Shown: positions 358-58,811 of the stretch, in pieces
Layout of the letters: every line of letters begins with the position of its first letter
Numbering within the stretch: position 1 is the stretch's first letter
Origin: a virus
Direction: 5' to 3' (one strand)
Virus record (IMG/VR): IMGVR_UViG_3300037258_001214
Location: 1 to 64,000 of that record
Length of the DNA: 64,000 bases
Translations under genes and position numbers: made by a program
The notes under the pieces: generated by a model
Seen by the model: only the letters and a program-made list of their open reading frames with translations
Told to the model about the DNA's origin: nothing
Database searches by the model: none

Positions 358-1410
358 GTGACCGAGCTCGAACCTCTCCCGGCCGCCATGCCGGGGACGC
401 TCGCCGCAGTCCGCCGACGCGACGAGAATCCCTACTGGGTATACCTCGCGCGGTTCTCCGGCGAATCGCTCCGGACCATGCGCGGGTGCCTCGACCGGAT
501 CACCGCGATCCTCATGCATCAGCCGCCGGCCATGGCCGTGCCAGGGTTCGGCCAGCAGATCCGGTGGGAACAGATCCGCTACGCGCACGTCGTCCTGCTC
601 CGGACCGAGTTCACCGAGCACTGGTCATCCCCGAGCCACGTCAACAAGCACATGTCCGCGCTCCGCGGCGTGCTGCGCGAGTGCTGGCGGCTGGACCTGA
701 TGACCGCTGAGGACTACCAGCGGGCACGCGATGTCGAAAACATCAAAGGCAGCCGCGAGCCGGCCGGCCGGAACATTCACACCGACGAGATCGCCGTGCT
801 CCTGGGCGCGTGCGGCGCCGGCGAGAACGAGGCCCTCGGCATCCGTGACGCCGCGATCATCGCCGTGCTCCAGTCGACCGGCATCCGGCGGGCCGAGGCC
901 GCGGCCGCGCGGATCGAGCGGTACGACCATGGCGAGCGGACGCTCAAGGTCATCGGCAAGGGGAACAAGGAACGCACCGCCTACATCCACCAGGCCGCGG
1001 TGTCCTACCTTGACCGCTGGCTCGTCACGGTCGGAGCGCGCCGCGGCCCGCTGTTCCGGGGTGTCGACCGCTGGGGGCACGTCGGCACCGAGCCGCTGAG
1101 CGCCCGCGCGATCGGCTACATCCTGAACGAGCGCCGCGAGCAAGCCGGAGTGCCCCGGCTATCGACCCACGACTTCCGCCGCACCTTCATCGGGGACTTC
1201 CTCGACGCCGGCGGCGACCTGGCCCAGGCTCAGAAGCTCGCGGGCCACGCCTCGGCCACCACGACCGCCGCGTACGACCGGCGCCCGGGCCGCGCGCTGC
1301 GTGCTGCTGTCGACCGGCTGAGCCTGCCCGCGCCGGACCAGCTAACGATCCCGTCAGCGCGCCCTGGCCCGGCACCGGGCAGTGCGGCGGCGAGTAGCAG
1401 ACCGCGCTGA
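358..1410 (+). CDS. Tyrosine recombinase/integrase (XerC/D-like)
   Basis: Catalytic motifs RDAAIIAVLQSTGIRRAE (R), GKGNKER (K), HDFRRTF (HxxR), LAGHASATTTAAYD (H, Y). Confidence 0.93.
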   Translation: MTELEPLPAAMPGTLAAVRRRDENPYWVYLARFSGESLRTMRGCLDRITAILMHQPPAMAVPGFGQQIRWEQIRYAHVVLLRTEFTEHWSSPSHVNKHMSALRGVLRECWRLDLMTAEDYQRARDVENIKGSREPAGRNIHTDEIAVLLGACGAGENEALGIRDAAIIAVLQSTGIRRAEAAAARIERYDHGERTLKVIGKGNKERTAYIHQAAVSYLDRWLVTVGARRGPLFRGVDRWGHVGTEPLSARAIGYILNERREQAGVPRLSTHDFRRTFIGDFLDAGGDLAQAQKLAGHASATTTAAYDRRPGRALRAAVDRLSLPAPDQLTIPSARPGPAPGSAAASSRPR

Positions 1411-7041: not shown

Positions 7042-8361
7042 TTACAGCGGAAGCAGCCCTCTGCGCTCGGCCACCCGTTCGTATGCCGCCTCGTCAGCCT
7101 GCAGGCGCATCAGCTGGGCAATGGCTACCTGCCGCGCATGGTCCTCATCGGAGCCGAGGACCTGTGCGAGATCACGGACCAGGCCACCGGCCAGCGCGGC
7201 CAGCTGGTCACGCTGACGGGGCCGCAGGTGCTGGGACAACTCGTCGGGGTCGAATATCTCAGCGACGGTGCCGTGCCGGTCGGCGACCTCGACCCTGATC
7301 TGCTTGCCCGCCAGGCTGCGGGGTGGCGCGCCGCCTGGCTTCACTGCCCGGCCCCGGAGGCCAGGGCCGACCGCAGCCGGGCTTCGACGTCCCTGGCCAT
7401 GTCGCCGTCCTTGATGCCGAGCACGTCGCGCAGGCGGCGGGATACGAGCCGGGCGGGCGGCCCGATCTCCACCGAGGGGTGCAGCGACCCGCGCAGCAGG
7501 ATGGCGAGGTCGCGGATCAGGGCATCGGTGCGGAGCGGGGAAACGTGATGCCGCTCGCGCTCAGCCGCCACCGCCGCGTCCCGCCATGCGATCAGGTCGG
7601 CCCGGACGTCCGCCTCGGCTGCCGGGATGAAGTCGTCCTCGGTCATCGTGCCGATCGACCATGCCTCCCAGGCGCGGGTGCAGGCATAGATGCCGTTGCG
7701 GACACCGAGCAGGTCGTCCAGTTCGGCGTCGGAGCCAGTGTCGGTCATCACTCGGTCCTTCCTGCGGGCGTCAGCGTGAACAGCCACGCCGACGACGGGG
7801 CTTCGGCGATCTTCCCGGCATCTCCCACGTTCCGGGTGCCGCACCGGCCGCACACCAGGTGAGCCACACGGCCCGCCGTGAGATCGGCGACGAGGAGATG
7901 TGTCGCCGGGGCGCGGCGGCAGTAGACGCACGTCAGCGCAGGTTCCGGCTGTTCGGCTGCCGCCATGGCGTGGGCCAGGATCACGCGCCACGAGGTCAGG
8001 TCGATGCCGCCGCCGAGCGCGGACTTCTCGGCGCCGTCCTCTTCCCCGCGCCGGTGGCGCATCAGCGCGTACTCGGCCACCATCTGGTGTTCCGCCTGGC
8101 CGTACCCGAACCGCGCGGCGGCGGCCAGGCCTGCGGCCACGTCTACCTTGTCGGCGTTCCAGCCCGGCACCAGGGGCCGGCCGCATGCGTCGCGGGTCAC
8201 CGCGTGCCTCTTTCCCTCTTCGGGCTGTTCCCCGATCCGGGGCACCGGGTACCCCGCCTGCCGTGGCTGCTGAGCCGTCTGCCGCTCACGGCGACCTGGC
8301 GCCCGCAGACGGGGCACTTGCCCTTCGGGTGCCTGGACCGCGCCCGGCCGGAGTCAGTCAC
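7042..8361 (-). CDS. Run of four small hypothetical genes (7042-7344, 7341-7748, 7748-~8200, 8197-~8361)
   Basis: Overlapping stop/start codons; CxxC motifs in the last two. Confidence 0.5.
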
Positions 8362-23932: not shown

Positions 23933-24525
23933 CAGGCACCGGCCATCACGCGGTCGAAGATGTCCCGGCCCATCCGCACGTCACCGAGCGCGGTGTGAGC
24001 CTCGCAGTCCTCCGGACGCAGCCCGACTATCCGGGCCGCGTCGGCAACCTTCAGCGGCCACGGCAGCGTCATGCCATGTGCGACGGCGTAGCCGCGCACC
24101 AGCGACCCCAGGTCGGTGTAGTGGTAGTCGGCGGTCAGGCACTCGCCGTTCGCCCGCAGGAACGCGTCCATATGGCCGGCGTCGAACTGCGGGTTGGCTG
24201 CAATCAGGTGAGCGCCGTCCAGGATCGCGGCGAGCTGCCCGGCCAGCTGCGGCGAGCCGAGATGCTCCGTCTCCTGGTCAGGGGACAGCGGGACGCGCAG
24301 GACCGACCCGGGGGCGTGAGCGCGGACCTTGCACCGCCGGTAGTAGCCGCCCACCGCGAGCGAGCCCGCATTCCCGCTAGGCACGTCCGGGCGGATGTGC
24401 CACAGGTTCTCCTCATCGCCGCTGTAGGCGGGGTTGCGCTCGATCAGGGCCAGTTCCCAGATGGTCGCGGGGCCCGGGTCGATGGAGATGGTCTCGCAAT
24501 CTGCGAAGACGATGCGCGCGGTCAC
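23932..24525 (-). CDS. DEDDh 3'-5' exonuclease (DnaQ-like)
   Basis: FADCET, NPQFD, HTALGD. Confidence 0.85.
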   Translation of the reverse strand: MTARIVFADCETISIDPGPATIWELALIERNPAYSGDEENLWHIRPDVPSGNAGSLAVGGYYRRCKVRAHAPGSVLRVPLSPDQETEHLGSPQLAGQLAAILDGAHLIAANPQFDAGHMDAFLRANGECLTADYHYTDLGSLVRGYAVAHGMTLPWPLKVADAARIVGLRPEDCEAHTALGDVRMGRDIFDRVMAGA

Positions 24526-26693
24526 CGGTTACCTCCGGGCAGGAAGTCGTCAACCCACGCGGCGGCAGCCCGGTCCAGCGTCAGCCTGGCGCGGGTGAAC
24601 GCGACGTACAGCAGCATCGCCAGTTCGTCGGGCATCTCCGGGTCAGGCCGGTCCGGGGTGCGGCGAGGCGGCCGGAAATCCTCGATCCGCACCGAGTCCC
24701 ATTCGCGGCCCTTTACCTTGTGGGCGGTGCCGACGACCACACCGGCGTGCTTCTCGTCAGCTAGCGCGTCAGTCGCGGCGATGATCTTCTCGGGCCCGTG
24801 CTCGTCGATCAGGCTGACCAGGACCCTGAGGTCCGCGCCGGCGGCGTCGTTCTCCGCGTGGTCCTGCACCTCACCCCACGTCCTGAACGTGAACAGCTCG
24901 GGGTGGCTCGTCGGCCGGCCAGCCCGCAGGTCATCGGCGGCCTCGGCCAGCGCGCGGATCGCTTTCCCGCCGCCGAGCAGCGCGACCTTGCGGCCTTGGT
25001 CCATCGCGCGCATCGCGCAGCCCATCGCGCCGGCGTTCGTCCGGCACAAGATCGCGTCGGGGTTGTCGCAGCTCCGGACCGTGGACGAAATCCGGTCAAG
25101 ACCACGCAGCCGCAAGCGCGCACCGAGGATCGTCAGTACCTTGTTGGCCTCGCCGGCGATGGCGGACCCGAACCGGAACGACTGCTCAAGTGAGAACGTG
25201 GCGGCGGCAGGGAACTTGTCCATGGCGTCGATCGCGCCGGCCCACGCGTTGATGGCCTGGCACCTGTCGCCGACAGCCACCACCTGCAGGTCGCGCTGCT
25301 TCAGCAGGACGCCGAGGTTAACTTCGGGGGTGTCCTGCGCCTCGTCGTAGAACACGAAGTCTCCGGGCAGCACCGGGTCGCCGAGGGCCCAGATCTTGCG
25401 GTAGTGGTCATGGTCGAACTTGAGCCGGCCGTCACGGGCCGACAGGTCGGCCCAGGCGCGGCGGGCCAGCGGCACGATGACCTGCGCGAGCTCCGAACGG
25501 GCCGCCGGGTCTTCGAGTCCGTTGACCTTCGCGACGTGCCGGGCCGCTACCTCCTCGTCGGCCGACCGGCAGTACCGCTCGACTGCGGCCATGGCCAGGC
25601 GGGCCAGCTGGGTCGGCGCGAGCATCACGTCGCCGACCTTGACCGGGCTGCTGGCCCGCAAGATGAAAGCCTGCTCGCGGGCGGGGATGCGGGGGCCGTT
25701 CAGCCGGTGCGCGTAGTCGCGGCCGACCGCGGCCATGGCCACCGAGTGGATTGTCGAGCAGTCCGTGTTCGGCGGGAACTTCCGGCGCGCCTCCGCGGCG
25801 ACCGCGGCGTTGAAGCACAGGTAGCTTCCCGACCTGCCCGGGACGGCTTGGGCGGCCATGATCAGCAGGCTGGTCTTCCCGGTGCCCGCGCCCGCTTCCA
25901 CCACGACCGACGGGACCCCGGAGGCGAATGCCTCGATCGCCGGGGCCTGCTCGCCGGTCGGCGTGAGGTCGCCCTTGCGGGCGCGCGGAGTCTCGTGCGG
26001 TACCGGAGGTAGTGCAGAGGCCTCTTTGCGTTCGTCGGCCGCGGGCACGGAGGCCGGCCCGGCATCGGCCTGCGGCGCGGGCGCCGGGACGATCCGGCCG
26101 TCCTCGGTGACCTGCCCCGCCGCGATCGCCGCCGCGATCTGATGCGCAGCCTGCTTACCCGGCTTGTACTGGCACCGGCCGGTCGCATCATGACGGGTGA
26201 TGGTGGCGACCGTTTCCCGGTCCCCCGTGTTGTGGTCGGCGACGGTGCCGCCGCGTTCCCTGAGCTCGGTCTCGAACGCGGCGCGCACGCCGAGCTCGAT
26301 CCGGCGGCCGACCAACTCAGGCAGGAAGTCGGCCAGCAGCTTGAGCGCGCGCGGGTCGTGCAGCGCGGCCGGGAGCACGTACTCCTCGAGTTCGTCGGGC
26401 CGGGCGCACAGGATCAGTTCCTCCTCGCGGGTGCAGACCTCTATCTCGCCCGCGTAGATGGAGAGGGTGCCGACCTCGGTGCCGTCGGGGAGCACGACGC
26501 CGGTTGTCTTCATGCCCCGGTTCCGGGCCGCGGCGAAGTCGGGTTGCGCACCCTGGCGGGCGGCCTCGGCTGCCGTCTTTGCCTTGGCGGCGTGGTACTC
26601 CCGGACCGCGATCCTGACCGCGTGGGCCTGGGCGGCGATGGCCAGCTCGTCGTTGGCGGGGAGGGCCGGCGCTTCGGCCTGCGTGCCGGTCAT
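24522..26693 (-). CDS. UvrD-like SF1 helicase with an extra ~200-aa N-terminal domain
   Basis: AGAGTGKT, DEAQD, VGDRCQAI, SFRF, LCRTN, TAHKVKGREW, YVAFTRAR. Confidence 0.9.
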   Translation of the reverse strand: MTGTQAEAPALPANDELAIAAQAHAVRIAVREYHAAKAKTAAEAARQGAQPDFAAARNRGMKTTGVVLPDGTEVGTLSIYAGEIEVCTREEELILCARPDELEEYVLPAALHDPRALKLLADFLPELVGRRIELGVRAAFETELRERGGTVADHNTGDRETVATITRHDATGRCQYKPGKQAAHQIAAAIAAGQVTEDGRIVPAPAPQADAGPASVPAADERKEASALPPVPHETPRARKGDLTPTGEQAPAIEAFASGVPSVVVEAGAGTGKTSLLIMAAQAVPGRSGSYLCFNAAVAAEARRKFPPNTDCSTIHSVAMAAVGRDYAHRLNGPRIPAREQAFILRASSPVKVGDVMLAPTQLARLAMAAVERYCRSADEEVAARHVAKVNGLEDPAARSELAQVIVPLARRAWADLSARDGRLKFDHDHYRKIWALGDPVLPGDFVFYDEAQDTPEVNLGVLLKQRDLQVVAVGDRCQAINAWAGAIDAMDKFPAAATFSLEQSFRFGSAIAGEANKVLTILGARLRLRGLDRISSTVRSCDNPDAILCRTNAGAMGCAMRAMDQGRKVALLGGGKAIRALAEAADDLRAGRPTSHPELFTFRTWGEVQDHAENDAAGADLRVLVSLIDEHGPEKIIAATDALADEKHAGVVVGTAHKVKGREWDSVRIEDFRPPRRTPDRPDPEMPDELAMLLYVAFTRARLTLDRAAAAWVDDFLPGGNR

Positions 26694-27682
26694 GCCGCCG
26701 TGGCCTTTGCTGCCTGGTCCTGCGAGAGGGCACGCCGCCGCTCGACGATCTCCTGGTTCAGCTGCGACCCCTGCTCCGGGGTGATGGCCCGGTCGGCCAC
26801 GGCCCGGCCGATCCGGCCGCGCATCGGCGGCAGCTGCTCGTCGGCCGCCTTGGCCAGCTCGGCCCGGAACGCCGCGATCCACGCCTGAGCCGGATCGTCG
26901 TCGGCCGGGGCGGCAGCCTCGCTGCCGGCCTCCGCGCGGACCCGGGTTTCCTTCTGGCGGATCCAGTACAGGACCTGGGTCGTGCGCTGAGCGGTTATCT
27001 CCCCGCGGTTATAGTCGTCCTTGAGGGTGACGACGGCGTGCTCGCAGTCCGCGAGGGTCTTTATGTCCGCGATCAATTGAGCCCAGGTGTCGTCGTCATC
27101 TAGCGGCTCCTGCGGCGGGATCTCCCGCCGCTGAGACTGCTCAGGCCGGTCCTGGTCCTGGCGGCCGTTCCTCGGCGCCGCGGGAGCGGCGTTGTCGAAG
27201 TCGTCGCCGCTCCGGCGGCCCGCCGTCGGGCGCTCGTAGCTCTGGGAGTCCGGGTCCGGGTCGCTGGTGGGCAGGTTCAGCGTCTGCAGGAGGCAGATCC
27301 TGTAGGCGACCGACATGGCCTTGGGGGTGGCCTTGTCCCCGGAGTCCATGGCCTCACCGGGCACCTTGGCGTCGAAGTAATCCCCGAGCGGCCCGTAGAA
27401 CCGGTAGCTGACCTCGACCTGCACATGCCCCATCAGGGAGCGCTTCTGGCCGATCTCGACGCCCTCTTTGTACTCGTACCTCTCCAGCATCGGGACCGGG
27501 ATGATGCCCAGCTCGTCGAACGCCTTGGCGATCGCGTTGACTACCGCGTCGATTCCGCGGTAGTTGAAATGCTGCTGCGTGTTCGTGCTGTCCTTGCCGA
27601 CCGGCCCGACCATGCGCTTGGCTTCGGCGAACAGCTCGAAGATCGTGCGCGCGGCCACGGGCGGCGCTTCGGTCACGGTCAC
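26690..27682 (-). CDS. ERF-family ssDNA annealing recombinase
   Basis: FNYRGIDAVVN...GEAMDSGDKATPKAMSVAYR. Confidence 0.88.
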   Translation of the reverse strand: MTVTEAPPVAARTIFELFAEAKRMVGPVGKDSTNTQQHFNYRGIDAVVNAIAKAFDELGIIPVPMLERYEYKEGVEIGQKRSLMGHVQVEVSYRFYGPLGDYFDAKVPGEAMDSGDKATPKAMSVAYRICLLQTLNLPTSDPDPDSQSYERPTAGRRSGDDFDNAAPAAPRNGRQDQDRPEQSQRREIPPQEPLDDDDTWAQLIADIKTLADCEHAVVTLKDDYNRGEITAQRTTQVLYWIRQKETRVRAEAGSEAAAPADDDPAQAWIAAFRAELAKAADEQLPPMRGRIGRAVADRAITPEQGSQLNQEIVERRRALSQDQAAKATAA

Positions 27683-29003: not shown

Positions 29004-29354
29004 TCAGGCGACTTTGCGCCGCTTCGGCCGTTCTCCCGCTGACGCGGGATCCCCCTCGCTGAGCAGGCTGGCCACGGCCTTCCCGACCGCTGCCGGGTTG
29101 ACGATCCGGGCCACCGGGCATCCCAGGGCGTCGGCGACCCGCTTGAGGGTCTCCGAGGTGAGGCTGGAGACGCCCTTCTCTGCCAGGCACATGTGGGACA
29201 GGGAGATCCCGGACTCCTCCGCGAGCTGCTTGGGGGTCAGGCCGCGCTCCATGCGGAGGGCGATGATCGCCGCGGGGTTCTGCAGGGCCGGCTTGCTGCC
29301 GGCCTTGCGGCCCCGGTTCGGCTTGGCTGGCGTCTCGGTCACGGTCCCGACCAT
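29004..29354 (-). CDS. Cro-like XRE regulator
   Basis: LRMERGLTPKQLAEESGISLSHMCLAEKG; heads the early arm, divergent from the repressor. Confidence 0.8.
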   Translation of the reverse strand: MVGTVTETPAKPNRGRKAGSKPALQNPAAIIALRMERGLTPKQLAEESGISLSHMCLAEKGVSSLTSETLKRVADALGCPVARIVNPAAVGKAVASLLSEGDPASAGERPKRRKVA

Positions 29355-29460
29355 AGCGCACACTGTGACACACTGCAAAAGAGTGCGCGCACTGTTACCC
29401 AAGCTTTACCAGGACGCGGGAGTGTGCTGTACTGTGCGCGACTGAATGAGAGGAACCCCG
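29355..29460. promoter_or_regulatory. Lysis/lysogeny switch intergenic region
   Basis: AT-richer spacer between divergent XRE genes, with repeated (C)ACTG units. Confidence 0.6.
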
Positions 29461-30063
29461 ATGGCCGAGTTTCCCGGCCGGCCTGCCGAGGCGCGGCTGC
29501 TCCTGCGCAAGCGCACCGCCCGCAAGCTCACCCCCGCCCAGGCGGCAGCGCTGGCCGGAGTCTCCCTCTCCACCTACCGCCAGATCGAGAACGGCTACCA
29601 CATCCCTGCCAAGGGCGTCGTGGTCCCGAAGATCGCCCCGGCCGAGACGCTGGCCCAGATGCTCCGCGGATTCGGCGGCACCCCCCGCGAGCTCATCGAC
29701 GCGGGGCGCCCGGACGCGGCGGAAATACTCGAGGGGATCCTGGCCGAGGAGGCAGCCGCGCCCGCCGTAGAGGCGGCGCACCCCGAGGCTGCTGATGCCC
29801 GGACGGCGCGCGCCCGGGCGGTGGCGGCCGGGATCCTGCGCCGCTTCGAGGCCCTTCCGTCCGGCATCGCGCCGGACCAGGCCGGGGCGGTCCTGTTCGA
29901 TGACCGCCGCCTGGCTGCCGCGTGGGACGCGGGCTGGACGGCGAGCCGGGCGGATCTCACCGAGCGGCCGGAACGGGTCGCCTGGGCAGTCGCGGTGATC
30001 CAGGTGCGCCTGGAGGCGGCCGAGCCGGGTTCGCGCGAGGCCTTAGCCGCGCCCCAGGCGTAA
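29461..30063 (+). CDS. Probable immunity repressor (XRE); TTA at codon 195 of 200
   Basis: LTPAQAAALAGVSLSTYRQIENG HTH; TTA at 30043-30045. Confidence 0.75.
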   Translation: MAEFPGRPAEARLLLRKRTARKLTPAQAAALAGVSLSTYRQIENGYHIPAKGVVVPKIAPAETLAQMLRGFGGTPRELIDAGRPDAAEILEGILAEEAAAPAVEAAHPEAADARTARARAVAAGILRRFEALPSGIAPDQAGAVLFDDRRLAAAWDAGWTASRADLTERPERVAWAVAVIQVRLEAAEPGSREALAAPQA

Positions 30064-30240
30064 TGTCCGGATGTAACCAATTGGTAACGTTACGTCCATT
30101 CGATCTTGCGCCGCAATGTGCGCAAGAGATAGGAAAGTTGACGCCCGGGGCCTGCGGGCAGCAAGAAACAAGCCGATCCCGGCGCGGGAGGGAAGAAACA
30201 GGAGCGCCGGGAACGGCCAACAGGGAGGGGACCCCCAGCT

Positions 30241-31212
30241 ATGCAGCAGACCGCGCGGTCCGCCGCGCTCCCGGCACCGCCGGACCCGGCAGGACTGGAA
30301 GACCTGTGCGCCCGGCACGCCACGCTGTGCGAGGACGCCGGCCGGAATGCGCTCGGCGATGACGGCTGGGGCGAGATGGCCGACAATGTCGCCGAGATCG
30401 CCGGCCGTGCCCGCCTGCTGGATCTCGCATGGACGCTGCGCGCCGCCGAGCTCGCCGCCGCCCGGGCGGAAGGATTCGAGACCGGCCGCGTCTCTGCCGC
30501 CGCGGGTCGCCACCGCCGCGGCCAGGGCCAGTTCTGGCCCCGCGCGGTGCCGGCCGTCATCCCCGCCGCCGCCCTGGGCACCCTTCACCACGGGACCAGG
30601 ACCAAGCTGCTCGCCGCCGCGGCCGCCCTGGGTGCCGTCACCGCCGCCGGGACCGCGGGCTTCGTCACCCTGCCGGACGTCACCGCTCATGCCGCGCACC
30701 GCCATCCGGCCGCCGTAGCTTCGCTGGCGCCCGTCAGCGCCATCCGGATCCAGCCGGGTCCCGCGCCGTCGTACCAGTCCAGGCACGGCCGTACCGACGC
30801 CGCCGGATCGCGGCTGATCGCCCGGCCAGCGGCATCGGCGCCGCCCCCGTCATCGCCGCCCCCGTCGTCCGCAGCTCCGGCACAGGGCACCCTGGACGTG
30901 ACCCAGGAGAGCATCACCCCGGGCCGAGACGGGACGGCGCGGATCGACCTGACCGCCGTCGGCGGTGACGTGAGCTGGTCGGCCGCGGTGCCCGCCGGGG
31001 TGACGCTATCCAGCCACGGCGGGACGCTCGGGGCCGGCCAGGTGCTGGAGGTCACCTTGACCGCAGCACCGGGCACCGAACCCGGCGTGATCACGCTGAC
31101 GGACCTGGGGGAAGCGCCGGTCACCGTGGCCCTGGAAGCCGCTGCGCCGGCCGTGGCGGCGGGGCAGCATCAGGGGCCGAGGCTCAAGCCCGGCAGGCAC
31201 CGCAGGCGCTGA
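30241..31212 (+). CDS. Membrane-anchored protein with Pro/Ser linker and C-terminal beta-sandwich-like domain
   Basis: Hydrophobic LLAAAAALGAVTAAG segment, PPPSSPPPSS linker, beta-rich tail. Confidence 0.55.
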   Translation: MQQTARSAALPAPPDPAGLEDLCARHATLCEDAGRNALGDDGWGEMADNVAEIAGRARLLDLAWTLRAAELAAARAEGFETGRVSAAAGRHRRGQGQFWPRAVPAVIPAAALGTLHHGTRTKLLAAAAALGAVTAAGTAGFVTLPDVTAHAAHRHPAAVASLAPVSAIRIQPGPAPSYQSRHGRTDAAGSRLIARPAASAPPPSSPPPSSAAPAQGTLDVTQESITPGRDGTARIDLTAVGGDVSWSAAVPAGVTLSSHGGTLGAGQVLEVTLTAAPGTEPGVITLTDLGEAPVTVALEAAAPAVAAGQHQGPRLKPGRHRRR

Positions 31213-32018
31213 GCGGGACGGCGGCGTAATGCGGGCGGCTTGATCCCGATCCCCGCCAGCACGTACAGCCGGAACGGCTCGCCTCCGGCCAGGGTCAGCC
31301 TGGCGCCCCCCGCCCGCACCGCCGGCCTGACCCCGGGCGGCAGCACCTCCAGGCCCGCGAGAAGGGCGGCAGCCTCGTCCGGGGTGTAGTTCACCAGCGG
31401 GTCCCCGGCGGCCTGCCACGCGCCGCTGAGCCGGCCGAACAGGGCCTCGTCCTCGTTGCAGGTCACGGTGAGGACCACGGCCGACCCGGGCGCCAGTGCC
31501 GAGGCGTACCCGGCGATCACCTCGCGGGCCTGCGCCTGCTCCATGACGTTGGCCACCAGCCCGAAGACCGCGCACACGGGCTCGGCCAGGGCGATGACGT
31601 CGGTCACGGCAGGATGGGCGAGGACCGCCCCCGGGTCCCGGATGTCCGCCGTGGCGACAGAGAAGTTCTTGACCCCCTCGCGGGCCAGCCTGGACCCGTA
31701 CCGGTGCACCGCCCGGTCCCGGTCCACGCACGCCACCCGGGCCTCCGGGCCGGCCTGCTGGGCGGTGTCCCGGACCGACCCGGCAGCGGGGAACCCGGAG
31801 CCGAGGTCGAGGAACTGGGTGATGCCCAGGCGCGATGACGCCAGCAGGACAGCGTGAGCGAGGTAGGCCCGGTTGCTGCGGACCACCCGGCGCACGCCCG
31901 GGTAGATCTCCGCCAGCTGCCTCGCGAGCTGGCGGTCAGGATCGCCGTTGTGGTAGCCGTCCAGCAGGGCGTCGTAGACGCGGGATGGCACCGGCGCGGG
32001 CAGCGTCCGGGGGATCAA
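31170..32018 (-). CDS. Actinobacterial SAM-dependent methyltransferase (Methyltransf_19-like), copy 2
   Basis: SRVYDALLDG, GITQFLDLGSGFP, VACVD, ADIRDP, LAPGS, GIGIKP; TTA at 31227-31229. Confidence 0.85.
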   Translation of the reverse strand: MIPRTLPAPVPSRVYDALLDGYHNGDPDRQLARQLAEIYPGVRRVVRSNRAYLAHAVLLASSRLGITQFLDLGSGFPAAGSVRDTAQQAGPEARVACVDRDRAVHRYGSRLAREGVKNFSVATADIRDPGAVLAHPAVTDVIALAEPVCAVFGLVANVMEQAQAREVIAGYASALAPGSAVVLTVTCNEDEALFGRLSGAWQAAGDPLVNYTPDEAAALLAGLEVLPPGVRPAVRAGGARLTLAGGEPFRLYVLAGIGIKPPALRRRPAQRLRCLPGLSLGP

Positions 32019-33007
32019 AGCGGGTCCGCCTCCTCGGTCGCCCCCCGCTCGTCACCGTACGCCGTGCGGTCGTGCCGGCCGGCCGGCGGATCTCGCGGGG
32101 AGAGAGTCCCATGGGGAGGGATCCCCGCTGGCCATCGCCGGCCGGCCTGGCACGGCCTCCTGGCGCGCGGCACCCCCGGGGGGCATGCAGGGTGCCGCGC
32201 GGTCCGTAAGTCCTCCGCCGCCGGGACGCGTCCCACGCCGGCCAGCACGTGCCCTTCGCGGCGCCGGAACACCGGCTCGGGCTGCCAGGGGCGCCACGTC
32301 TGCGCCTCGCTGACACCGGGGCCCGCCATGGGGAGCCCGGCGAAGAACGACGCGATGTCCTCCCTGCCGTGGTTGACGAACTCCCCGGCGGTGTATTCCC
32401 ACGCCAGCTTCCCGGCCAGGTCCTCGTCGTCGAAAGCCGCCACGGAGATGGCCAGGCAGCTGCCGGGGGCGGCCAGCCGCGCGTACCCCGCGGTCACCTG
32501 CCGGGCCGTGTCAGCGTCCAGGAAGTGCAGCACCGCGGCCAGGATCACGCACACAGGCTCCGCGGGGTCGATGACGGCCCGCAGCTCCGGGTCGGCCAGC
32601 ACCGCGGCGGGGTCGCGCAGGTCCGCCTCGGCGACTGCCACGCGAGGGCCGGCGAGCAGCGCGCGGGCATGCGAGAGCACCACCGGGTCCAGGTCGACAT
32701 AGGCCACCCGCGCCCCCGGCCGGACCGCCTGCGCGGACTGGTGGACCGCTGGAGCAACAGGAAGCCCCGCCCCCAGGTCGATGAACTGGACGATCCCCTC
32801 ACCGGCGGCCCAGGTGACAGCCTCGGCGATGAACGCCCGGTTCTCCCGGGCCATGTCGGCCAGCGGCGGGTAGATCTCCAGCAGCGCGTCGGCCTCGCCG
32901 CGGTCGGAGGGAAAGTGGTCCTTGCCGCCCAGCAGCCGCGAGTACACGCGGGCCGCGTTCGGCGTGGCCGGATCAAACCCGGTCGCGGCCGGATCGAACC
33001 CGGTCAC
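32015..33007 (-). CDS. Actinobacterial SAM-dependent methyltransferase (Methyltransf_19-like), copy 1
   Basis: FDPATPNAARVYSRLLGGKDHF, GIVQFIDLGAGLP, YVDLDPVVLSHARALL, AVLHF; TTA at 32207-32209 just after the family C-terminus. Confidence 0.9.
   Translation of the reverse strand: MTGFDPAATGFDPATPNAARVYSRLLGGKDHFPSDRGEADALLEIYPPLADMARENRAFIAEAVTWAAGEGIVQFIDLGAGLPVAPAVHQSAQAVRPGARVAYVDLDPVVLSHARALLAGPRVAVAEADLRDPAAVLADPELRAVIDPAEPVCVILAAVLHFLDADTARQVTAGYARLAAPGSCLAISVAAFDDEDLAGKLAWEYTAGEFVNHGREDIASFFAGLPMAGPGVSEAQTWRPWQPEPVFRRREGHVLAGVGRVPAAEDLRTARHPACPPGVPRARRPCQAGRRWPAGIPPHGTLSPRDPPAGRHDRTAYGDERGATEEADPL
32164..32201 (-). terminator. 12-bp perfect hairpin starting 5 nt 3' of the TTA in methyltransferase copy 1
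   Basis: cgcgcggcaccc (32164-32175) / gggtgccgcgcg (32190-32201). Confidence 0.55.
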
Positions 33008-33737
33008 CGCGAGCACCGCCCCGGAGTGCCGCAGCACGACGGGTCGCGCCCGGGGCGGCGCGCCCGCCAGGCCACCCTGAGCCGCAGGACCGCCAGCCGC
33101 AGCGGCGCGAAGCTGCTTCTCCTCACTGAGCACGCCCGCCAGCCGGCGCATACGGCCGTGAGCCGCCCGCAGCCGGGGCACCCGTCCGGCCAGACGTTGT
33201 GATCCAGTCCCGGGTCCAGGCACGGGCTGGCCGGGGACGGGTCCTGCATCTGGCAGTACCCGCAGGTAACGGGCCCCCTCACCGTCCGGCCTCCGTCCGG
33301 CCGGCGGTGATCCCGGTGACCCTGCGGGCCCGGTCCCGGTCGACGGCGCCCAGGACACCGCGGAGCACGACCGCGTAGTCCGGGTCGAACTCGGGGCCGA
33401 GCGCGGCGAGCATCTCCTCGCGTGTCCCCTCGGGGTTCGCGTCCCGCCACCCGCCCACCTCGGCGCGGGCCCGGTCAAGGTCGGTCAGCTTCTCGTCCCG
33501 GAATCGCATGGCTCAGCGCCGCCTCCCGTAGCTGACCCGCAGGGCCATTGCCAGCCCGGCCGCGGACGCCCGGGTCAGCACGTGCCCGGTCCGGTCCCTG
33601 CGTGCCGCCTGCCACCGGCCGTCCCCGCAGCCGAAAGCCCAGGTGCTGCCCCAGTCCTCATGCAGCGCTCCGAGCGCCTCGGCCACGGCGGCATCGTCCT
33701 GGCGTGTCTCTCCTGGCTTCTCGTCCCGGAATCCCAT
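33004..33737 (-). CDS. Three small genes (33004-33282 Cys-rich; 33279-33509; 33513-33737)
   Basis: Coupled ORFs; the last two share the N-terminus M(R/G)FRDEK. Confidence 0.6.
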
Positions 33738-33881
33738 GGCGCCTGCCGGCCCTCCCTGGCTGTGCGGCACGTTTACGCCAGATGACGCTAGCGTGACGCT
33801 GAGGCAAACGACAGGTACGGCCAGTACTGGCGGCCCGGTTACTTCCCGCCGTTCAGGTACTCTCCGTGCGCGCTTAGCCGG

Positions 33882-35084
33882 TAACTCAGCGGGCCGGTAG
33901 TACCGGGCGTACCCGTCCGCGTCGGTGGCCGCGGCGAGTTCCCGCAGCGGGCGCGTCAGTCGCTGCTGCCGTTCGAGCAGTTCCGAGACGAGCTGGCGGG
34001 CGACCCCCTGATGCCGGAACCACGCCGGCGCCATCCCCCTGGCCTGCGACAGGACGGCGACCGCGGCGCCGCTGTGGCGGGCGTCCACGTGCGCCTGGGC
34101 GACGTCGAGGAGATGACGGCCGCGGGAGATCGTGCCGGGCAGGTCGGCGAGGTCCATCTTCCCCGCGGCCTTCAGCGCCTTCCCCGGCTGCCGCTGCACC
34201 GCCCAGGCGTAGGTGGCCTGCATCTGGACCGACGCGGCGGCGAAGCTGGTCCCGTACACCCGGACCCGGTGCCCGATCCGCTCCGCGGCAGCCCCCGCGA
34301 GCCGGATGTAGCCGTCCACGTCCCGGCCCGCCGCCGCGGCCGGGCCGACGGCGGTCATCAGGAGGTTCCCGAAAGCGGCCACATCCTGGTCCGGGCCCGC
34401 GAACGACGGCTCGATCCTCGCCGCTGCCGCGGCCGCGATCGTCTCCGCCTCAGCGAGGCGCCCCTGGTGCAGCAGCGCCCACGCGTACGTGCCCTGCATC
34501 GTGGCGTGCAGCCGCTCGTCATCGCCTTCGGCCGCCGCCGCGATCGCCCGCTCGGCCGCCATCGCGGCGAGGTCTTCCTTCCCCAGGTGGACCAGCAGCG
34601 CCGCCGCCTGGTCGTAAGCCAGCGCCAGCAGCTCGGCTGCTTCCGTCCCGTGCTCGCGCCGTGCTGCCCGCGCGGAGCGGATCAGGGGCGGCAGGACTGC
34701 GGTCAGCCGGGTCAGGTCCCCGGCCCAGTACGACGCCGTCGCATCCTCCACCGCTGCCCTGAGCTGGTCGGGGGCAAGCGGCCCGGAGTCATCCTCCCCG
34801 ACACCGGGGATCACCGACGGCGACAGGATCACATCCCGGAGCGCCAGGACACCCCCGTCGTCGGGGGCGCCGAGCCGGGGGCGCCGGTCGGCCAGCTCCG
34901 ACACGGTGACGTCGAGCGCGTCGGCGATCCTGGCCAGCACGGGGTACCGGGGATAGCGGGTGCCCTGCTCGGTCTTGGCGATCATCTCCGGGCTGATCCC
35001 GGCCCGGGCGGCCAGGTCCTCGCGGGTCAGGGCACGCTCGCGGCGCAGCCTCCGGAGACGGGTTCCCAGCGTGGTATCGTCCAT
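33882..35084 (-). CDS. XRE regulator with TPR-like C-terminal domain; no stop codon, frame passes a TTA (33882-33884) and fuses into the 33513-33737 gene
   Basis: LRRLRRERALTREDLAARAGISPEMIAKTEQG; Ala-rich helical repeats; ends ...YARYYRPAE-TTA. Confidence 0.85.
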
Positions 35085-47273: not shown

Positions 47274-47881
47274 TTGACGGGTGGTAGCACAACCGGCTAG
47301 GGTGGTACTACCACCTAGAGGGGAGCCCGAGATGCACCGCATAGCAGTCAAGATGCCAGCGGCGGCCGACCACGCCCCGCTGTCCGTGCTGAACCGGACC
47401 GGACGGGGCATCCGCACCACGATCGTCTGCTCGTGCGAGTGGATGCCGGCCAAGGCGCCCGCCGCCGCGTCCACGATGAACAACTCGCACATGGCGCACC
47501 GCCGCAAGCAGGGAATGCCCCGTGCGGACTACTCGGCCACCGTGTTCGGCGAAGGCCCGTGGATGGGCCTGACGTGGGATGAGTGGCACGACGCGCACGG
47601 CGACGAGAACGTGGACCCCTACACCGGGATGTCCCGTGCCTAACCAGCATGCCACCAAGCCCAGGGCCGTCCGGTTGCCGGGCGGCCTTGAGGCGCGCGT
47701 GAAGGCAGCTGCGGAAGCGGACGGCGGGACCGTCAACGCCTTCATCGTCGCCGCGATCGAGGAGAAGCTGGAGCGGCGCGGTAGCACCACCCCGGCCGGC
47801 CGGGTAGCACCACCCGCTGTCACCTTCACTGCGCCGCTCGACAGCCCGGATGCCCGTCGCCGGACGGGAGGAACCAGGTGA
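47274..47881 (+). other. Moron: promoter/operator, hypothetical gene (47332-47643) and RHH/Arc-like gene (47636-47881)
   Basis: TTGACG at 47274; palindrome GGTGGTA-C-TACCACC at 47301-47315; RAVRLPGGLEARVKAAAEADGGTVNAFIVAAIEEKL. Confidence 0.7.
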
Positions 47882-49112
47882 GCCCGTTCCGCAGTCGCCA
47901 GCAGCCGCCTCCGCGGCGGCAGCCGCATCCCGACGCGCGCATTGAGGCCGAGTTCCAGCGGATCATCTCGCTGCGGAAGGCCGTTGCCCGCAAAGAGGGA
48001 CTCGCCGCGAAGGACCACGAGCAGATCACCGCCATGCGAGAGCAACTCGCGCAGCACCCGACATGGGACCGGGCTCCGAAGCTGGCGGCAGCAGGTCGAT
48101 GCGCTCCTGGACGAAGTGGAGGAACTGGACGGCGACGTCACGAAGCTCCACGACGAGATCGCCGCGCGGATCGGCAAGATTGATGACGCCGACCTGGCGT
48201 GGCTGGAAAGCGGTCAGCCATGATCCCCGCCGAGCTGGACCAGATCCGGGACCGCCTCCGTCCGCACGGCCCGCACGTCTGCGATGACCGCTGCACCTGC
48301 CCGGTTCACGGCACGCCGCTGATCTACTGGCCAGCGGGGGACGATCACGCCTGCCGGGACATCACCTGCAAGTACGGACACGGTGGCGCGCTAGCGCCTG
48401 CAGCGGAACCTCCCGCCTCGTAAGCTACAGCTATGGCCGAACCGCGCGAGCTCATCATCACCGACGACGGGGAAGCGCTCTTCTCCGGCCATGTCGGCAT
48501 GCGCGTCCAACTGCCAGCCCAGCAGCTCCGGTGCTCTCCTGACCTCGCCGCCGCGATCCGCGAGCTGGACGCCGCCGCCGAGCCGGGCCGGCCCTCTCCG
48601 TCGCTGCTGATCTTCGGTGCCAGCGAGATCATCGCGGACGAGTCGGTGCTGTCCGGCGACTGGCACCTGGAGCAGGCCGGCCGCGTGATCCAGACCGGAC
48701 ACCTGGATGCAGCCTCGCTAGACTCGGCCGCCTCGTAAGCTACGATTCACCCAGGACGCCTCAGCCGCGTCCGTCCCGCGCTGCAACAGCGCTCAGATGA
48801 TCCCGCAACGGGTGCAAGCCTCACAGGAGATTGCGCCCCGTGCCGGAAACCTTGCCCGCGCCGCCTGATAACAGGCCGTACGTGCCGATGCACGAGCCCG
48901 GGCATGAGATCCGCACGCTATCCCTCGACGGCACCCGCAAGCACCGGTGGAAGCAGGTCGGCTGGCAGGGCCAGACCGGCGCCATCTACGGCCTCGGCGA
49001 GAAGCCGCAGCTGCACGAGCCGGGATCGTTCTCGCCGCTCTACGTGATGGTCGATTCTGACTACGTAGAGCTTCCCTCTGAGCTTTCGAGGGGAGGTGAT
49101 GCAGCGGAATGA
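47878..49112 (+). CDS. Four small accessory genes (47878-48223 with a +1 frameshift near 48079; 48220-48423; 48433-48738; 48831-49112)
   Basis: Coupled ORFs between terL and portal. Confidence 0.55.
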
Positions 49113-50925
49113 GTATGCCTTTCGTCCAGCCGTCAGCCATGCCGACCGGCTCCGCCACGCTCGGAGCACCGATCGGCCTGTCATCGACGCAGCCCATCGA
49201 CGACCGCCAGATGTCCATGCTTCCCGTGGGCAGCCAGCCATGGCCGCCACCGCAATACGATCCGGTCAGCTACCAGCACCGGATCTGGAATGCGTGGTGG
49301 ACCGGGGACCGCCAGATGCTGGCATGGGTTTATTACAACCTCGGAGCCAATTCGCCCTACGGTCGCGCTTTCTTTGCCACTACCGGTGAAAAGGGAATGC
49401 CGATGCCGCGCCCTGGCCAGTACAGGGGCGGCTTGCTGGGCAGTATTGAATACTCGTTCTGGTTAAGTGAGGCGAGCCCGTACCCCCAGGGGAGAAGCGC
49501 ACCCGCCTGCACGTCCCCATCGCCGGCGACATCGCGCAGACCTCCGCGTCGCTGCTGTTCTCCTCGCCGCCCGAGCTGAAGACGACGCTCACCGGGCCGG
49601 AGGGCGTCGCGAACCAGGCGTGGCTCAATGCCCTGATCGACGACGGCTTCCACACGCGGCTCCTGGAGGGCGGCGAGATGTGCGCGGGACTCGGCGGGGT
49701 GTACCTGCGGATCGTGTGGGACACCTCGGTCAGTGACAAGCCCTGGATCCAGCCGGTCTCCGCTGATGTCGCGGTGCCGCAGTTCGCCTACGACAAGCTC
49801 CGGTCGGCGACGTTCTGGCGGGTGCTGGAGGATAACGGATCGGACGTGGTCCGGCACCTGGAGATGCACGCGCCCGGTCAGAACCAGGTCATCCACGGTG
49901 TCTACTCCGGCGGCCAGTCCGACCTCGGCGAGATCGTCCCCATGTCCGATTTCCCGGCCACTGCGCGGATCTTCGCCGACCTGCAGGGCGACACGCTGAA
50001 CCTGCCCAACCTGCCGTTCGACGCGTCCACGGTCACCTACATCCCGAACCTGAAGCCCAACAGGATCTGGCGGGACCTCGGCCCGGAGCTGTGGCCGCTG
50101 GGCCGGTCGGATTTCCAGGGCGTCGAGCCGCTGATGGACGCCCTGGACCACACCTACTCGAACTGGATGCGGGACATCGACCTGGCGGCCATGCGCCTCA
50201 TCGTCCCGGCCGAGTACCTGGACAATATCGGGAGGGGAAAAGGGGCGGTTTTCGAGCCTGACCGCCGCGTGTTCACGCCCCTGTCGATGCTCCACGACGG
50301 AGGCGGCGCGCCGTCGATCACCGCCAACCAGTTCGCGATCCGCTGGCGGGAACATTCCGAGACCTGCCAGGACCTGGCCAACCGCATCGTCCAGGAAGCC
50401 GGGTACAGCGCTCAGTCCTTCGGCGACTACCAGGGCAACGCCCCGACCGCGACGGAGATCGAGGCCCGGGAGCGCACCAGCCTGATGACCCGGAAGAAGA
50501 AGATCCTGTACTGGCGGCCGTCGCTCCAGGACGCCATCTACTCGCTGATGTGCGTGGCCAGGCTGTACTTCGGCGCGTCCGCGATCACGCCGGAACGGCC
50601 GGATATCAACTTCCCCGCCGTGGCGCTCCCCGACGAGCAGGCCCTGGCGCAGACCGTGGCCACGCTGGCAGGCGCCGAGGCTGCGTCGAAGGCCACCTTG
50701 GTCGCGATGGCGCACCCGGAGTGGACGAAAGAAGAAGTCAACGCGGAGGTCCAGCAGATCCGCGCTGAGATCGGCACCGAGCTGGCCGCGCACGCGAAGA
50801 TCGCGCTGGCCCAGCCGCCGGGGACGTCGATCCAGGAGATGGAGGCGGGGCTGGAGCAGATGGCCCCGGTCACCGACGACACGGGTGCAGATGAGGGTAC
50901 CGGCGACCAGGAAGGCGGTTCGTGA
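49109..50925 (+). CDS. Portal protein, split by an 8-nt coding gap at 49463-49470 (~602 aa if joined)
   Basis: 5' frame ends ...IEYSFW; 3' frame resumes GEPVPPGEKRTRLHVPIAGDIAQTSASLLF...GRSDF...TATEI; lies after terL. Confidence 0.88.
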
Positions 50926-57273: not shown

Positions 57274-58811
57274 ATGCCCGGTCCGGACGTCTTGCCCCCG
57301 CTGGCGTATTTCCAGCACCAGATAGTGCTCATCCCGAAGCAGTTCGGCTACGTGGGCAGCTACACCCGTGGCATGCTCGACGTGGAGCAGGTGCAAGACC
57401 GCGCCTTCGGTCAGATGATGTACCGGTTCACCACCAGCGTCCTGTCCGGGCGTACCGTCACCGAGACGCAGCGGGCGTCGGTCAAGGTGCCTGCCAGCTG
57501 GTGGCAGCACCTGAAGAGGACGGCTGGCGAACGGCACGCGGAATGGATCCGGAAGCCGCACAGCCCGTGGCTGCTGTTCATCCTCCCGCTCGACATCCTC
57601 ACCATCGTGCCCCGCGTCTACCTCGTCCCGTGGTTCCTGCGCCGGCATCCGGTGAGGTACGCCGAGATCACCGCCGAAGTCCGCTTCACGCGCGACACGC
57701 TCTACCCCGGCGCCGATGTCTCGCTTCCGCATGACCGCTTCGGCGTGCCGGTCATGTGGGAGTCGCTGGAGATCGCGCCGATGGCCCCGGACGGCGAGCC
57801 GTGGACGCTGGACGACTATGGGGCGCCGCGCTTCGTCAGCCGCCATGAGCTTCTCGGCGAGATCTACCGGGACACGGACCTGATCAACGCTAGGGGGGCC
57901 TTCGGCGGCATGATCACGCCGGACGGTGTCCTCGACTGGCTCGGCCAGCACGGCGTCAGCGTTGACCAGCTCGTCGCCAGGAGTGCCCTGTGAGCGGGCC
58001 GCGAGGTGCGGCATGAGCCTGACCACCGACCCGGAGGACCTGCGCCTCGGCCGTGGTGCTGACCGGGAGCCTGGCCCGCAGAACACGGCCTACCTGGTCC
58101 TGTCCGACGGGGAGCGCGCCAAGGGCTTCGTGCGGCCGGTGCGGCTGTCCTACCGGCACGCCGGCATCCCCGGCCCGCGCTGGCCGCTCCGCGATCTCAC
58201 CGGCGAGGAGCAGGAACGCTACGCAGGCAGCGGCTACGCCAGGTACGAGGAATACCCGCCTGACGACCTGTCCGCGCTCGGCCGGTTCTGGACCCAGGCG
58301 CAACTCGACGGCATCGGCAAGGGCTGCCGCGCGGTCACGACCATGAACCGGGCCATCGCGGAGACTTACAGCCGCACGCCCGGCTTCTACGGGGCCACCT
58401 ACTGCTGCTCCTGCCGTCTTCACCTGCCCGTGGGGCCGCAGGGAGAGTTCACCTGGATCGAGCCTGACGGGTCGGAGGCGGGGAACCGCGTTGGCACCTG
58501 AGCAGGCGGAGGACGCCTACCCCGTCGCCTACTGTGCTCCCGGCCGGCGCTTCGCCGCCGCGCTCACCCTGATGTTCAAGGGCGAGGAGGTCGCGCGGAT
58601 CGTCGAGCACCCGTGGCTTGAGGGGACCGCGGGCGTCTACGTCGTGGCCGAAGATCGGCTGGACCTGACCAAGCTGCTCCCGGTCAGGTGCGAGGTCTCC
58701 GAGCCGTTGCCGTGGCGTGACCCCAACTGGGTGTACGGGGCGCTCGTGAACACGCCCATACGGGGCATCTGCCCCGCTGTAGGCGTAACGGGCATCTCGG
58801 CGTTACCATGA
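57274..58811 (+). CDS. Three accessory genes between scaffold and capsid (57274-57993, 58013-58501, 58491-58811)
   Basis: Middle gene has YLVLS..ERAKGFVRPVR..AETY..FYGATYC; the last has TTA as penultimate codon. Confidence 0.6.

Follow-up and report, generated by a model that had tools for sequence, protein, structure and literature searches.

TTA codons in a candidate bypass gap of the portal gene and in the tail of a probable repressor gene of a provirus: a possible two-armed response to tRNA-Leu(UAA)

In Streptomyces the UUA codon is read solely by the developmentally regulated bldA tRNA-Leu(UAA). The terminase gene of phage phiHau3 carries two blocks of 10 nucleotides (nt), each led by TTA, and Smith et al. 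(2013; J Bacteriol 195:4924) proposed that the ribosome skips them in the absence of a functional bldA tRNA, the terminase being hence made in vegetative hyphae only. Support for the phiHau3 bypass came from a full-length product in Streptomyces and, in E. coli, from the peptide that spans the junction (Antonov et al., 2023; PMC10732093). In these two papers UUA-led terminase gaps were described in phiHau3 and in the StrepC.1 and S. catenulae prophages, and they were proposed as a growth-stage sensor for the choice between lysis and lysogeny. We have analyzed a stretch of 64,000 nt (the window), which is the first part of the 94,375-bp virus record IMGVR_UViG_3300037258_001214, of the provirus class, lacking usable host flanks and with a G+C content of 71%. 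A preliminary description of the window had claimed that its probable repressor gene (29461-30063) needs a TTA to be decoded near its 3' end, that its portal gene needs a TTA not to be decoded, and that one tRNA would set both arms of the lysis/lysogeny decision. No tRNA genes were found on the record, therefore the UUA tRNA in question must be that of the host. Megablast of 20 kb of the window against cultured phages gave no match.

The portal gene of the window consists of two segments separated by a short block (Table 1). The block is absent from eight related portals, where ...EYSFW joins G(E/Q/S)P.PPGEKR in a single frame, and in the DNA alignment it appears as a clean 8-nt insertion present in the window only. 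The product of the 3' segment is 39-42% identical to proteins of Streptomyces and Gordonia phages that are annotated as portals. When the UUA is decoded, the zero frame reaches a stop 37 codons later (49577-49579). This arrangement resembles that of phiHau3, whose gaps as we read them, GGC[TTACTCCGGT]AAG and TCT[TTAACGGTCC]ACG, are made of a take-off codon, TTA, four bases and a synonymous landing codon. In the same way, the block of the window is a frame-breaking insert that starts with an in-frame TTA, lies in an essential late gene and has flanks that adjoin in the relatives. Its landing triplet is also a wobble variant of the take-off codon, and the Trp codon TGG has TGA as its sole wobble neighbour. 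Unlike in the phiHau3 terminase, the gap is in the portal, measures 8 nt and has a stop codon as landing triplet. Another described case is gene 60 of phage T4, which is alike in its matched take-off and landing codons and in the slow codon that occupies the A site straight after take-off. However, gene 60 skips 50 nt, from GGA to GGA and past a stop codon, with a nascent-peptide signal and a stem-loop, whereas in the window the ribosome would skip 8 nt, past a hungry sense codon, and the local RNA is predicted to have no strong structure.

Two surveys of portal relatives in IMG/VR, with 80 relatives each, provided six further TTA-led gaps (Table 1; the coordinates given for L012, L140, L151, L252, L253 and L261 are approximate). 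Two of the six are at the same site as in the window with other filler, and four are at four other sites. In the two that share the site (L151 and L252) the landing AGG matches the take-off TGG at positions 2-3 only. The identity to the portal protein of the window is 76% for L151, 75% for L252 and 78% for L012. All seven resolved frame breaks of the portal family start with an in-frame TTA; outside these seven, the frame of L146 changes twice in the C-terminal part, with no obvious TTA. A gap that is found at the same site, with the TTA kept and the filler changed, between proteins of 75-76% identity speaks against a recent lesion as well as against an error of assembly. That the portal needs its TTA not to be decoded is thus well supported by the comparison (eight gap-less relatives and six TTA-led gaps) and by the literature. 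It is strongly supported that the gap of the window is a further member of the known phiHau3-type candidate mechanism, the bypass here being a putative one, read from sequence comparison.

The other gene in question, 29461-30063, starts at an ATG preceded by GAGGAA and stands alone in the rightward direction, divergent from the helix-turn-helix (HTH) gene that heads the early operon, that is, in the position of cI. The AlphaFold2 model of its product had a mean predicted local distance difference test (pLDDT) value of 90.9, with the HTH domain at residues 9-99, a helical domain at 108-187 and a pLDDT of 55 for the last 10 residues. As in cI-type repressors, an HTH domain is accompanied by a confidently predicted helical C-terminal domain, which may serve in oligomerisation, and the layout includes a divergent Cro-like gene, an early lytic operon and repeated operator-like motifs in between. 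Pfam gave no match to a Peptidase_S24 domain in the protein, so that it would not be of the autocleaving LexA/lambda-cI type. Sequence searches and Foldseek found generic XRE domains only, the Foldseek matches (ClgR, HipB, Stl and DdrO) all having an E of at least 0.04. From its position, the gene is probably the lysogeny repressor. The 10-mer GCGCACANTG occurs exactly twice in the 64 kb (29356 and 30114), once at each side of the gene, and the pair is also present in the intergenic region of the syntenic relative L022, which is the same promoter/operator element. Approximately 95 nt of the immunity intergenic region are nearly exactly duplicated at 92.62-92.73 kb of the record (L120:12620-12730). 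The duplicate precedes the leftward gene 92331-92633 and includes its first codons, ATG GTC GGG. One regulator probably controls both promoters, and the duplication suggests that one repressor governs the early operon and the operon at the right end.

The letters and the frame of the repressor TTA given in the preliminary description were confirmed, the codon being followed by GCC GCG CCC CAG GCG TAA. Its relative position in the gene is 0.975 and the G+C content at third codon positions upstream of it is 0.90. L022 was the only syntenic relative compared at the DNA level for this gene. It has a syntenic gene order and a TTA at codon 193 of 208, and the C-terminal half of its gene has drifted to near-random identity. 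The two TTA positions correspond to each other, because HMMER aligns both proteins over their full length. The TTA is at the centre (GCC-TTA-GCC) of a 17-nt island that is identical in both (Table 1). This island is the longest exact run of the whole gene alignment, with a maximum of 16 in the N-terminal HTH half, and a run of at least 17 nt appeared in 1 of 2,000 codon shuffles (P about 5e-4). No relatives of the repressor were found in genome contigs with either the protein or the alignment as query, and a scan of metagenomes gave L022 only. A search with the 17-mer gave 85 matches in unrelated bacteria, about what is expected by chance by a rough estimate, and four viral ones. None of them adjoins a repressor homologue, and there is no second copy within the window; the 17-mer is not a widespread element.

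Several other features were observed around the 3' end of the repressor gene. Directly after its stop (30064-30127) there are two perfect palindromes, CCAATTGG and GTAACGTTAC, and two hairpins of 9 and 8 bp. The fold of 30000-30130 had a z of -2.6, with the TTA in the loop of a small GGC/GCC hairpin. A terminator or attenuator was considered here and rejected: the fold is strong and there are two hairpins, but the scan found no U-tract. The TTA overlaps a TAG in the +1 frame; slippage onto this stop (TTAG) was discarded for the poor re-pairing of the P-site GCC. The coding signal of the open reading frame (ORF) 30241-31212 on the + strand, which follows the repressor, is weak, and this ORF has a motif of 45 residues in common with L022:4854-5750, the gene at the same position there (pairwise E 3e-5). 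We take it as a fast-evolving partner of the repressor that is conserved in position. An origin of the TTA as the complement of the TAA stop of an antisense gene was rejected for the window, because a homologue of this + ORF stands at the same position in L022, which makes the antisense ORF 30043-30786 look like a GC-rich shadow.

The preliminary description had also proposed to look for co-occurrence of the repressor TTA and the portal gaps. The fragments L012, L151, L252, L253 and L261 are too short to include the immunity region, and the testable portal-gap genomes are two, the record and G021 (IMGVR_UViG_3300036823_000117). The latter is 118.6 kb long, 97% complete, and has tyrosine and serine recombinases in addition to its portal gap. 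It has the structural module in common with the record (45-65% protein identity) and not the immunity region. The one strong XRE HTH gene of G021 (7914-8351) stands alone and diverges from a gene with a weak HTH match, the first of a long operon, with GCATGCAC repeats between them. It ends TGC TTA TAG, so that TTA is its last sense codon, and its product is not homologous to the repressor of the window. As a control, we examined 30 HTH_3 genes from 19 gap-less relatives and none of them had a TTA after the HTH motif; two have far-upstream TTAs, probably ahead of the true start. Counting strong HTH genes with TTA, three of five (two in the record and one in G021) compared with 0/30 gave a Fisher P of 0.0015, or 0.014 if the two far-upstream control TTAs are taken as positive. 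Since the window was chosen for its TTA, the unbiased comparison is that of G021 alone, 1/1 versus 0/30, with P about 0.03. The G007 genome, where both the repressor and the portal families are present without TTA and without gap, was uninformative. In the relatives found through the helicase (L113-L117) and in the loci of the distant repressor homologues (L001-L011), one of the two families, repressor or portal, is missing.

Some further observations on G021 and on the gapped prophages are worth describing. G021 has 34 tRNA genes at 88.5-93.3 kb, including those for Leu with anticodons CAG, GAG and CAA, and none with anticodon UAA. Of the prophages with gapped terminases, L216 has the 10-nt gap of phiHau3 and L217 (a prophage of Streptomyces sp. 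NPDC057939) a +2 break at TTT-TTA. In the latter, on the reverse strand near 2077-2084, the break consists of two extra T's, ACG TTT TTA CC, and a +2 re-pairing of tRNA-Phe on the U5 run, while UUA occupies the A site, would bring back the reading ...TTF-TLLNET. It looks like either a minimal form of the UUA-led device or a homopolymer error.

We have analyzed the use of TTA over the whole 94-kb record. In-frame TTA accounts for 6 of the 27,767 called codons and for 6 of the 2,275 Leu codons, the comparable figures being 1,360 for CTG and 723 for CTC. The window contains 125 TTA trinucleotides versus 185 expected, and the density of TTA in the record is no higher than in control loci. All six in-frame TTAs are beyond relative position 0.75 of their genes, with a mean of 0.90 (0.25^6 is about 2e-4); the 31 other rare and minor codons that were tabulated have mean relative positions of 0.36-0.61. 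Downstream of each of the six, the codon-position GC bias is gone and an R/P/A-rich junk sequence follows, open for 1-122 codons. The TTA of the XRE-TPR regulator is approximately ten codons past the point where both the family profile and phiHau3 gp52 end, and after it the frame crosses an intergenic-looking stretch and enters in frame the next small gene, which starts near 33736. The TTA of each of the two methyltransferases comes 4-6 codons after the canonical ...GVG end. Five of the six are in immunity or accessory modules. Thus, TTA seems to occupy the place where a stop codon is expected, mostly in immunity and accessory genes. None of the TTG or CTA codons of the record (101) has turned into TTA inside a gene body, therefore the placement of TTA is not random. 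These terminal TTAs may reflect a lysogeny programme timed by the tRNA, or they may be the sole TTAs harmless enough to survive.

The mechanism that we propose has two arms. In the portal, if the UUA were read, the ribosome would pass codon 118, translate 37 junk codons and stop, and no portal would be made. If it were left unread, the peptidyl-tRNA-Trp would quit UGG, re-pair on the UGA 5 nt downstream and resume at GGC, giving a product with a junction identical to that of the uninterrupted relatives. In the repressor, a UUA placed after the folded domains and five codons ahead of the stop would tie the release of the complete protein to the same tRNA. With the tRNA present termination would be normal; with little of it the ribosome would stall and the chain might be released late, dropped or tagged. 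Lytic growth would thus be favoured while the mycelium is young, and lysogeny once it ages or sporulates. Such a single in-frame TTA in a regulator would tie its output to tRNA-Leu(UAA) as in the bldA-dependent genes adpA, actII-ORF4 and redZ. Tagging through SsrA (transfer-messenger RNA, tmRNA), which the preliminary description had invoked for the loss of repressor when the tRNA is scarce, was shown in E. coli, where rare codons or weak termination near the C-terminus provoke it (Roche and Sauer, 1999; Hayes et al., 2002; as cited in PMC2635970). The published phiHau3 model is one-armed and the repressor is not mentioned in the paper, unlike the reading given here for the window. We consider it possible, at a chance of about one in three, that one tRNA drives lysogeny and virion assembly in opposite directions via the repressor and the portal. 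Slightly more doubtful is the broader proposal that this design arose convergently in phages with unrelated repressors (the record and G021) and that the terminal TTAs of the XRE-TPR gene, the two methyltransferases and others belong to one lysogeny programme timed by the tRNA. The interpretation of the preliminary description is partly supported. The repressor arm would be a new and coherent extension of the described mechanism; the comparison, modest and partly biased and with clear counter-examples, is only suggestive.

A number of observations weigh against the two-armed switch. Leu195 is past the last long helix, in a non-conserved tail of low model confidence. The closest homologue (P0002, 70% identity) ends ...SRQA*, one residue before the TTA position, and others end within 0-6 residues with unrelated sequence and without Leu there. 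None of 11 distant homologues from IMG/VR has a TTA in the coding part, and the codon is thus not a trait of the repressor family. The claim that the repressor needs its TTA decoded is correct only in so far as normal termination lies five codons beyond the TTA; protein release, rather than the sequence of the tail, would be what matters for Leu195. Even release might do without the tRNA, as the same codon stands on both sides of the TTA in the window and in L022 (30040-30048 in the window) and an in-frame hop of 6 nt from GCC to GCC would finish the repressor with two residues fewer. A bias towards the 5' ends of genes is reported for the regulatory TTAs of Streptomyces, and the known ones are near the 5' end or in inter-domain linkers, unlike this one in the last six codons. 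In S. coelicolor the deletion of bldA altered the tagging pattern little, and no product of a UUA-containing mRNA was recognised among the tagged proteins. At the portal site only an AU-rich hairpin of 5 bp was predicted, 5' of the gap, and the RNA fold was unremarkable, with a z of -0.02. Lysogens would be unstable if vegetative hyphae could not complete their repressor. As for the co-occurrence, the sample is tiny, with two testable portal-gap genomes, and the TTA of G021 also reads, on the other strand, as the TAA that ends a convergent ORF, a possible trivial cause. No TTA was found in the putative repressor gp31 and the XRE regulator gp52 of phiHau3, in the gp31-type repressors of two gapped prophages (in G029 and G026), or in five further gp31-type homologues. 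Overall, a tail TTA in the repressor was present in both testable gapped-portal genomes plus L022, and in 0/3 gapped-terminase genomes. The expected co-occurrence holds for the portal gaps, including that of G021 with its unrelated repressor, but not for the phiHau3 lineage.

Many of these points are what one would expect if the hop in the portal does take place but the TTA of the repressor is a passenger that is tolerated and no switch. This is the main rival explanation, to which we give a chance of roughly one in three or slightly less. Genes unneeded for lytic growth in young hyphae would escape the purge of TTA, and a TTA in a dispensable tail, perhaps a one-base change of an old stop, would cost little, the UUA being still read slowly or hopped from GCC to GCC. 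The end of P0002 exactly at this position, the low pLDDT of the tail, the location of the in-frame TTAs of the record at the end of the coding signal, mostly in immunity or accessory modules, and the TTA-free repressors of the phiHau3 lineage all agree with a passenger, as does the fact that most chromosomal TTA genes have been horizontally acquired. However, a neutral TTA would not be expected inside the longest conserved run of the gene, nor would its recurrence as the last codon of the unrelated G021 repressor, given the 0/30 of the control HTH genes, and the fact that no TTG or CTA became TTA within gene bodies also speaks against this explanation. A different and unlikely possibility is that the gaps serve another purpose, for example by destroying the target sites of homing endonucleases, or are the scars of selfish inserts; hopping would then be a constant reading mode in infection, and the repressor TTA would be unrelated to it and carry no information on lysis or lysogeny. 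Gaps at many different sites of one gene family look indeed like repeated insertions, and about 1.8 kb of small ORFs are located between terminase and portal (47332-49112, with an Arc/HicB-like one at 47633-47881), but Pfam detected no HNH or other homing-endonuclease domain in these ORFs. This alternative also fails to explain why every gap opens with the codon of a developmentally regulated tRNA, and why there are TTAs in repressor tails.

It is quite improbable that the gene 29461-30063 is another kind of XRE regulator and that immunity is held by the XRE-TPR gene or by another one. Its assignment comes from position, the Foldseek matches are generic, the S24 peptidase domain is missing, and phiHau3 has a homologue of the XRE-TPR gene. 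Against this, the gene forms with the first gene of the early operon a divergent HTH pair of the classic layout, and it is flanked by an operator-like motif that is kept in L022 and has another copy in front of a second operon; besides, the XRE-TPR candidate itself has a TTA at its domain end. Finally, the interrupted frame of the portal might be taken as a sign of a broken gene in a defective provirus with no switch at all. We consider this very improbable, since the other large genes are intact, the gap at the same site in the portals with 75-76% identity has kept its TTA with changed filler, and the resolved frame breaks of the portal family (L146 being outside of them) all open with the same codon.

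The remaining features of the record are listed in Table 1. The capsid and tail genes of the rightward block (37-83 kb) were assigned via their similarity to the structural module of G021.

Table 1. Position of the features in the window and the record, and of the TTA-led gaps in related portals.
Feature	Position	Strand	Description
Probable immunity repressor	29461-30063	+	200-aa XRE-family HTH protein; Pfam HTH_3 E 8.5e-8, HTH_31 E 5.4e-7
In-frame TTA of repressor (Leu195)	30043-30045	+	codon 195/200, (30043-29461)/3 = 194; five sense codons ahead of TAA
17-nt island CGCGAGGCCTTAGCCGC	30034-30050	+	identical in L022
Operator-like half-site GCGCACATTG	30114-30123	-	within the second of two hairpins 3' of the repressor stop
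Divergent promoter/operator region	29347-29440		GCGCACACTG-type repeats; inverted repeats
Cro-like HTH gene	29004-29354	-	head of leftward early operon; HTH_3 E 1.2e-8; repressor/regulator PHROGs
Portal 5' segment	49109-49462	+	118 codons, ends ...EYSFW; take-off codon TGG (49460-49462); tblastn to relatives
Portal coding gap TTAAGTGA	49463-49470	+	8 nt: in-frame TTA (49463-49465), AG filler, TGA; stops in both other frames
Portal 3' segment	49471-50925	+	484 codons; SPP1_portal
Portal gap TTACGAGG	L151 (1765-1772)		8 nt; site of the window, after TGG, landing AGG
Portal gap TTAAAAGG	L252 (1493-1500)		8 nt; site of the window, after TGG, landing AGG
Portal gap TTAGCGGGTC	L012 (3651-3660)		10 nt; after GTT, landing GTC
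Portal gap TTACCAAACGC	L140, record G021 (1765-1775)		11 nt; after CGA, landing CGC
Portal gap TTAGCCCCCTTAA	L253 (1362-1374)		13 nt; after TAC, landing TAA
Portal gap TTACCGC	L261 (1314-1320)		7 nt; after CGA, landing CGC
TTAs at coding-signal end, window	1343-1345, 30043-30045, 31227-31229, 32207-32209, 33882-33884, 58803-58805	-, +, -, -, -, +
TTA at coding-signal end, rest of record	82933-82935	-
Tyrosine integrase	358-1410
Long leftward operon	29354 to ~1.7 kb		includes Erf-like annealing protein and helicase
Helicase	24522-26693	-	early operon
Erf-like annealing protein	26690-27682	-	3' of Cro-like gene
8-kb region between the two blocks			gene 29461-30063, two Methyltransf_19 paralogues, XRE-TPR regulator
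XRE-TPR regulator	33513-35084
Rightward block	37 kb to 83 kb		amidase-domain (candidate lysis) gene, terminase, portal

The idea that Streptomyces phages sense bldA has so far rested on the terminase alone, in three genomes, and has been hard to test. If the repressor TTA were silent, it would still show which places accept a TTA in a genome that bans this codon elsewhere. If the repressor is tied to UUA in the sense opposite to the portal, the sensor would become a full bistable switch made from codon choice alone. In this case, lysogeny in young mycelium should increase after a change of the repressor TTA to CTG, and once the portal gap is closed lysis should no longer be coupled to the age of the host. 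Rare codons at the end of genes would then gain a regulatory meaning, contrary to the accepted bias of regulatory TTAs to the 5' end.

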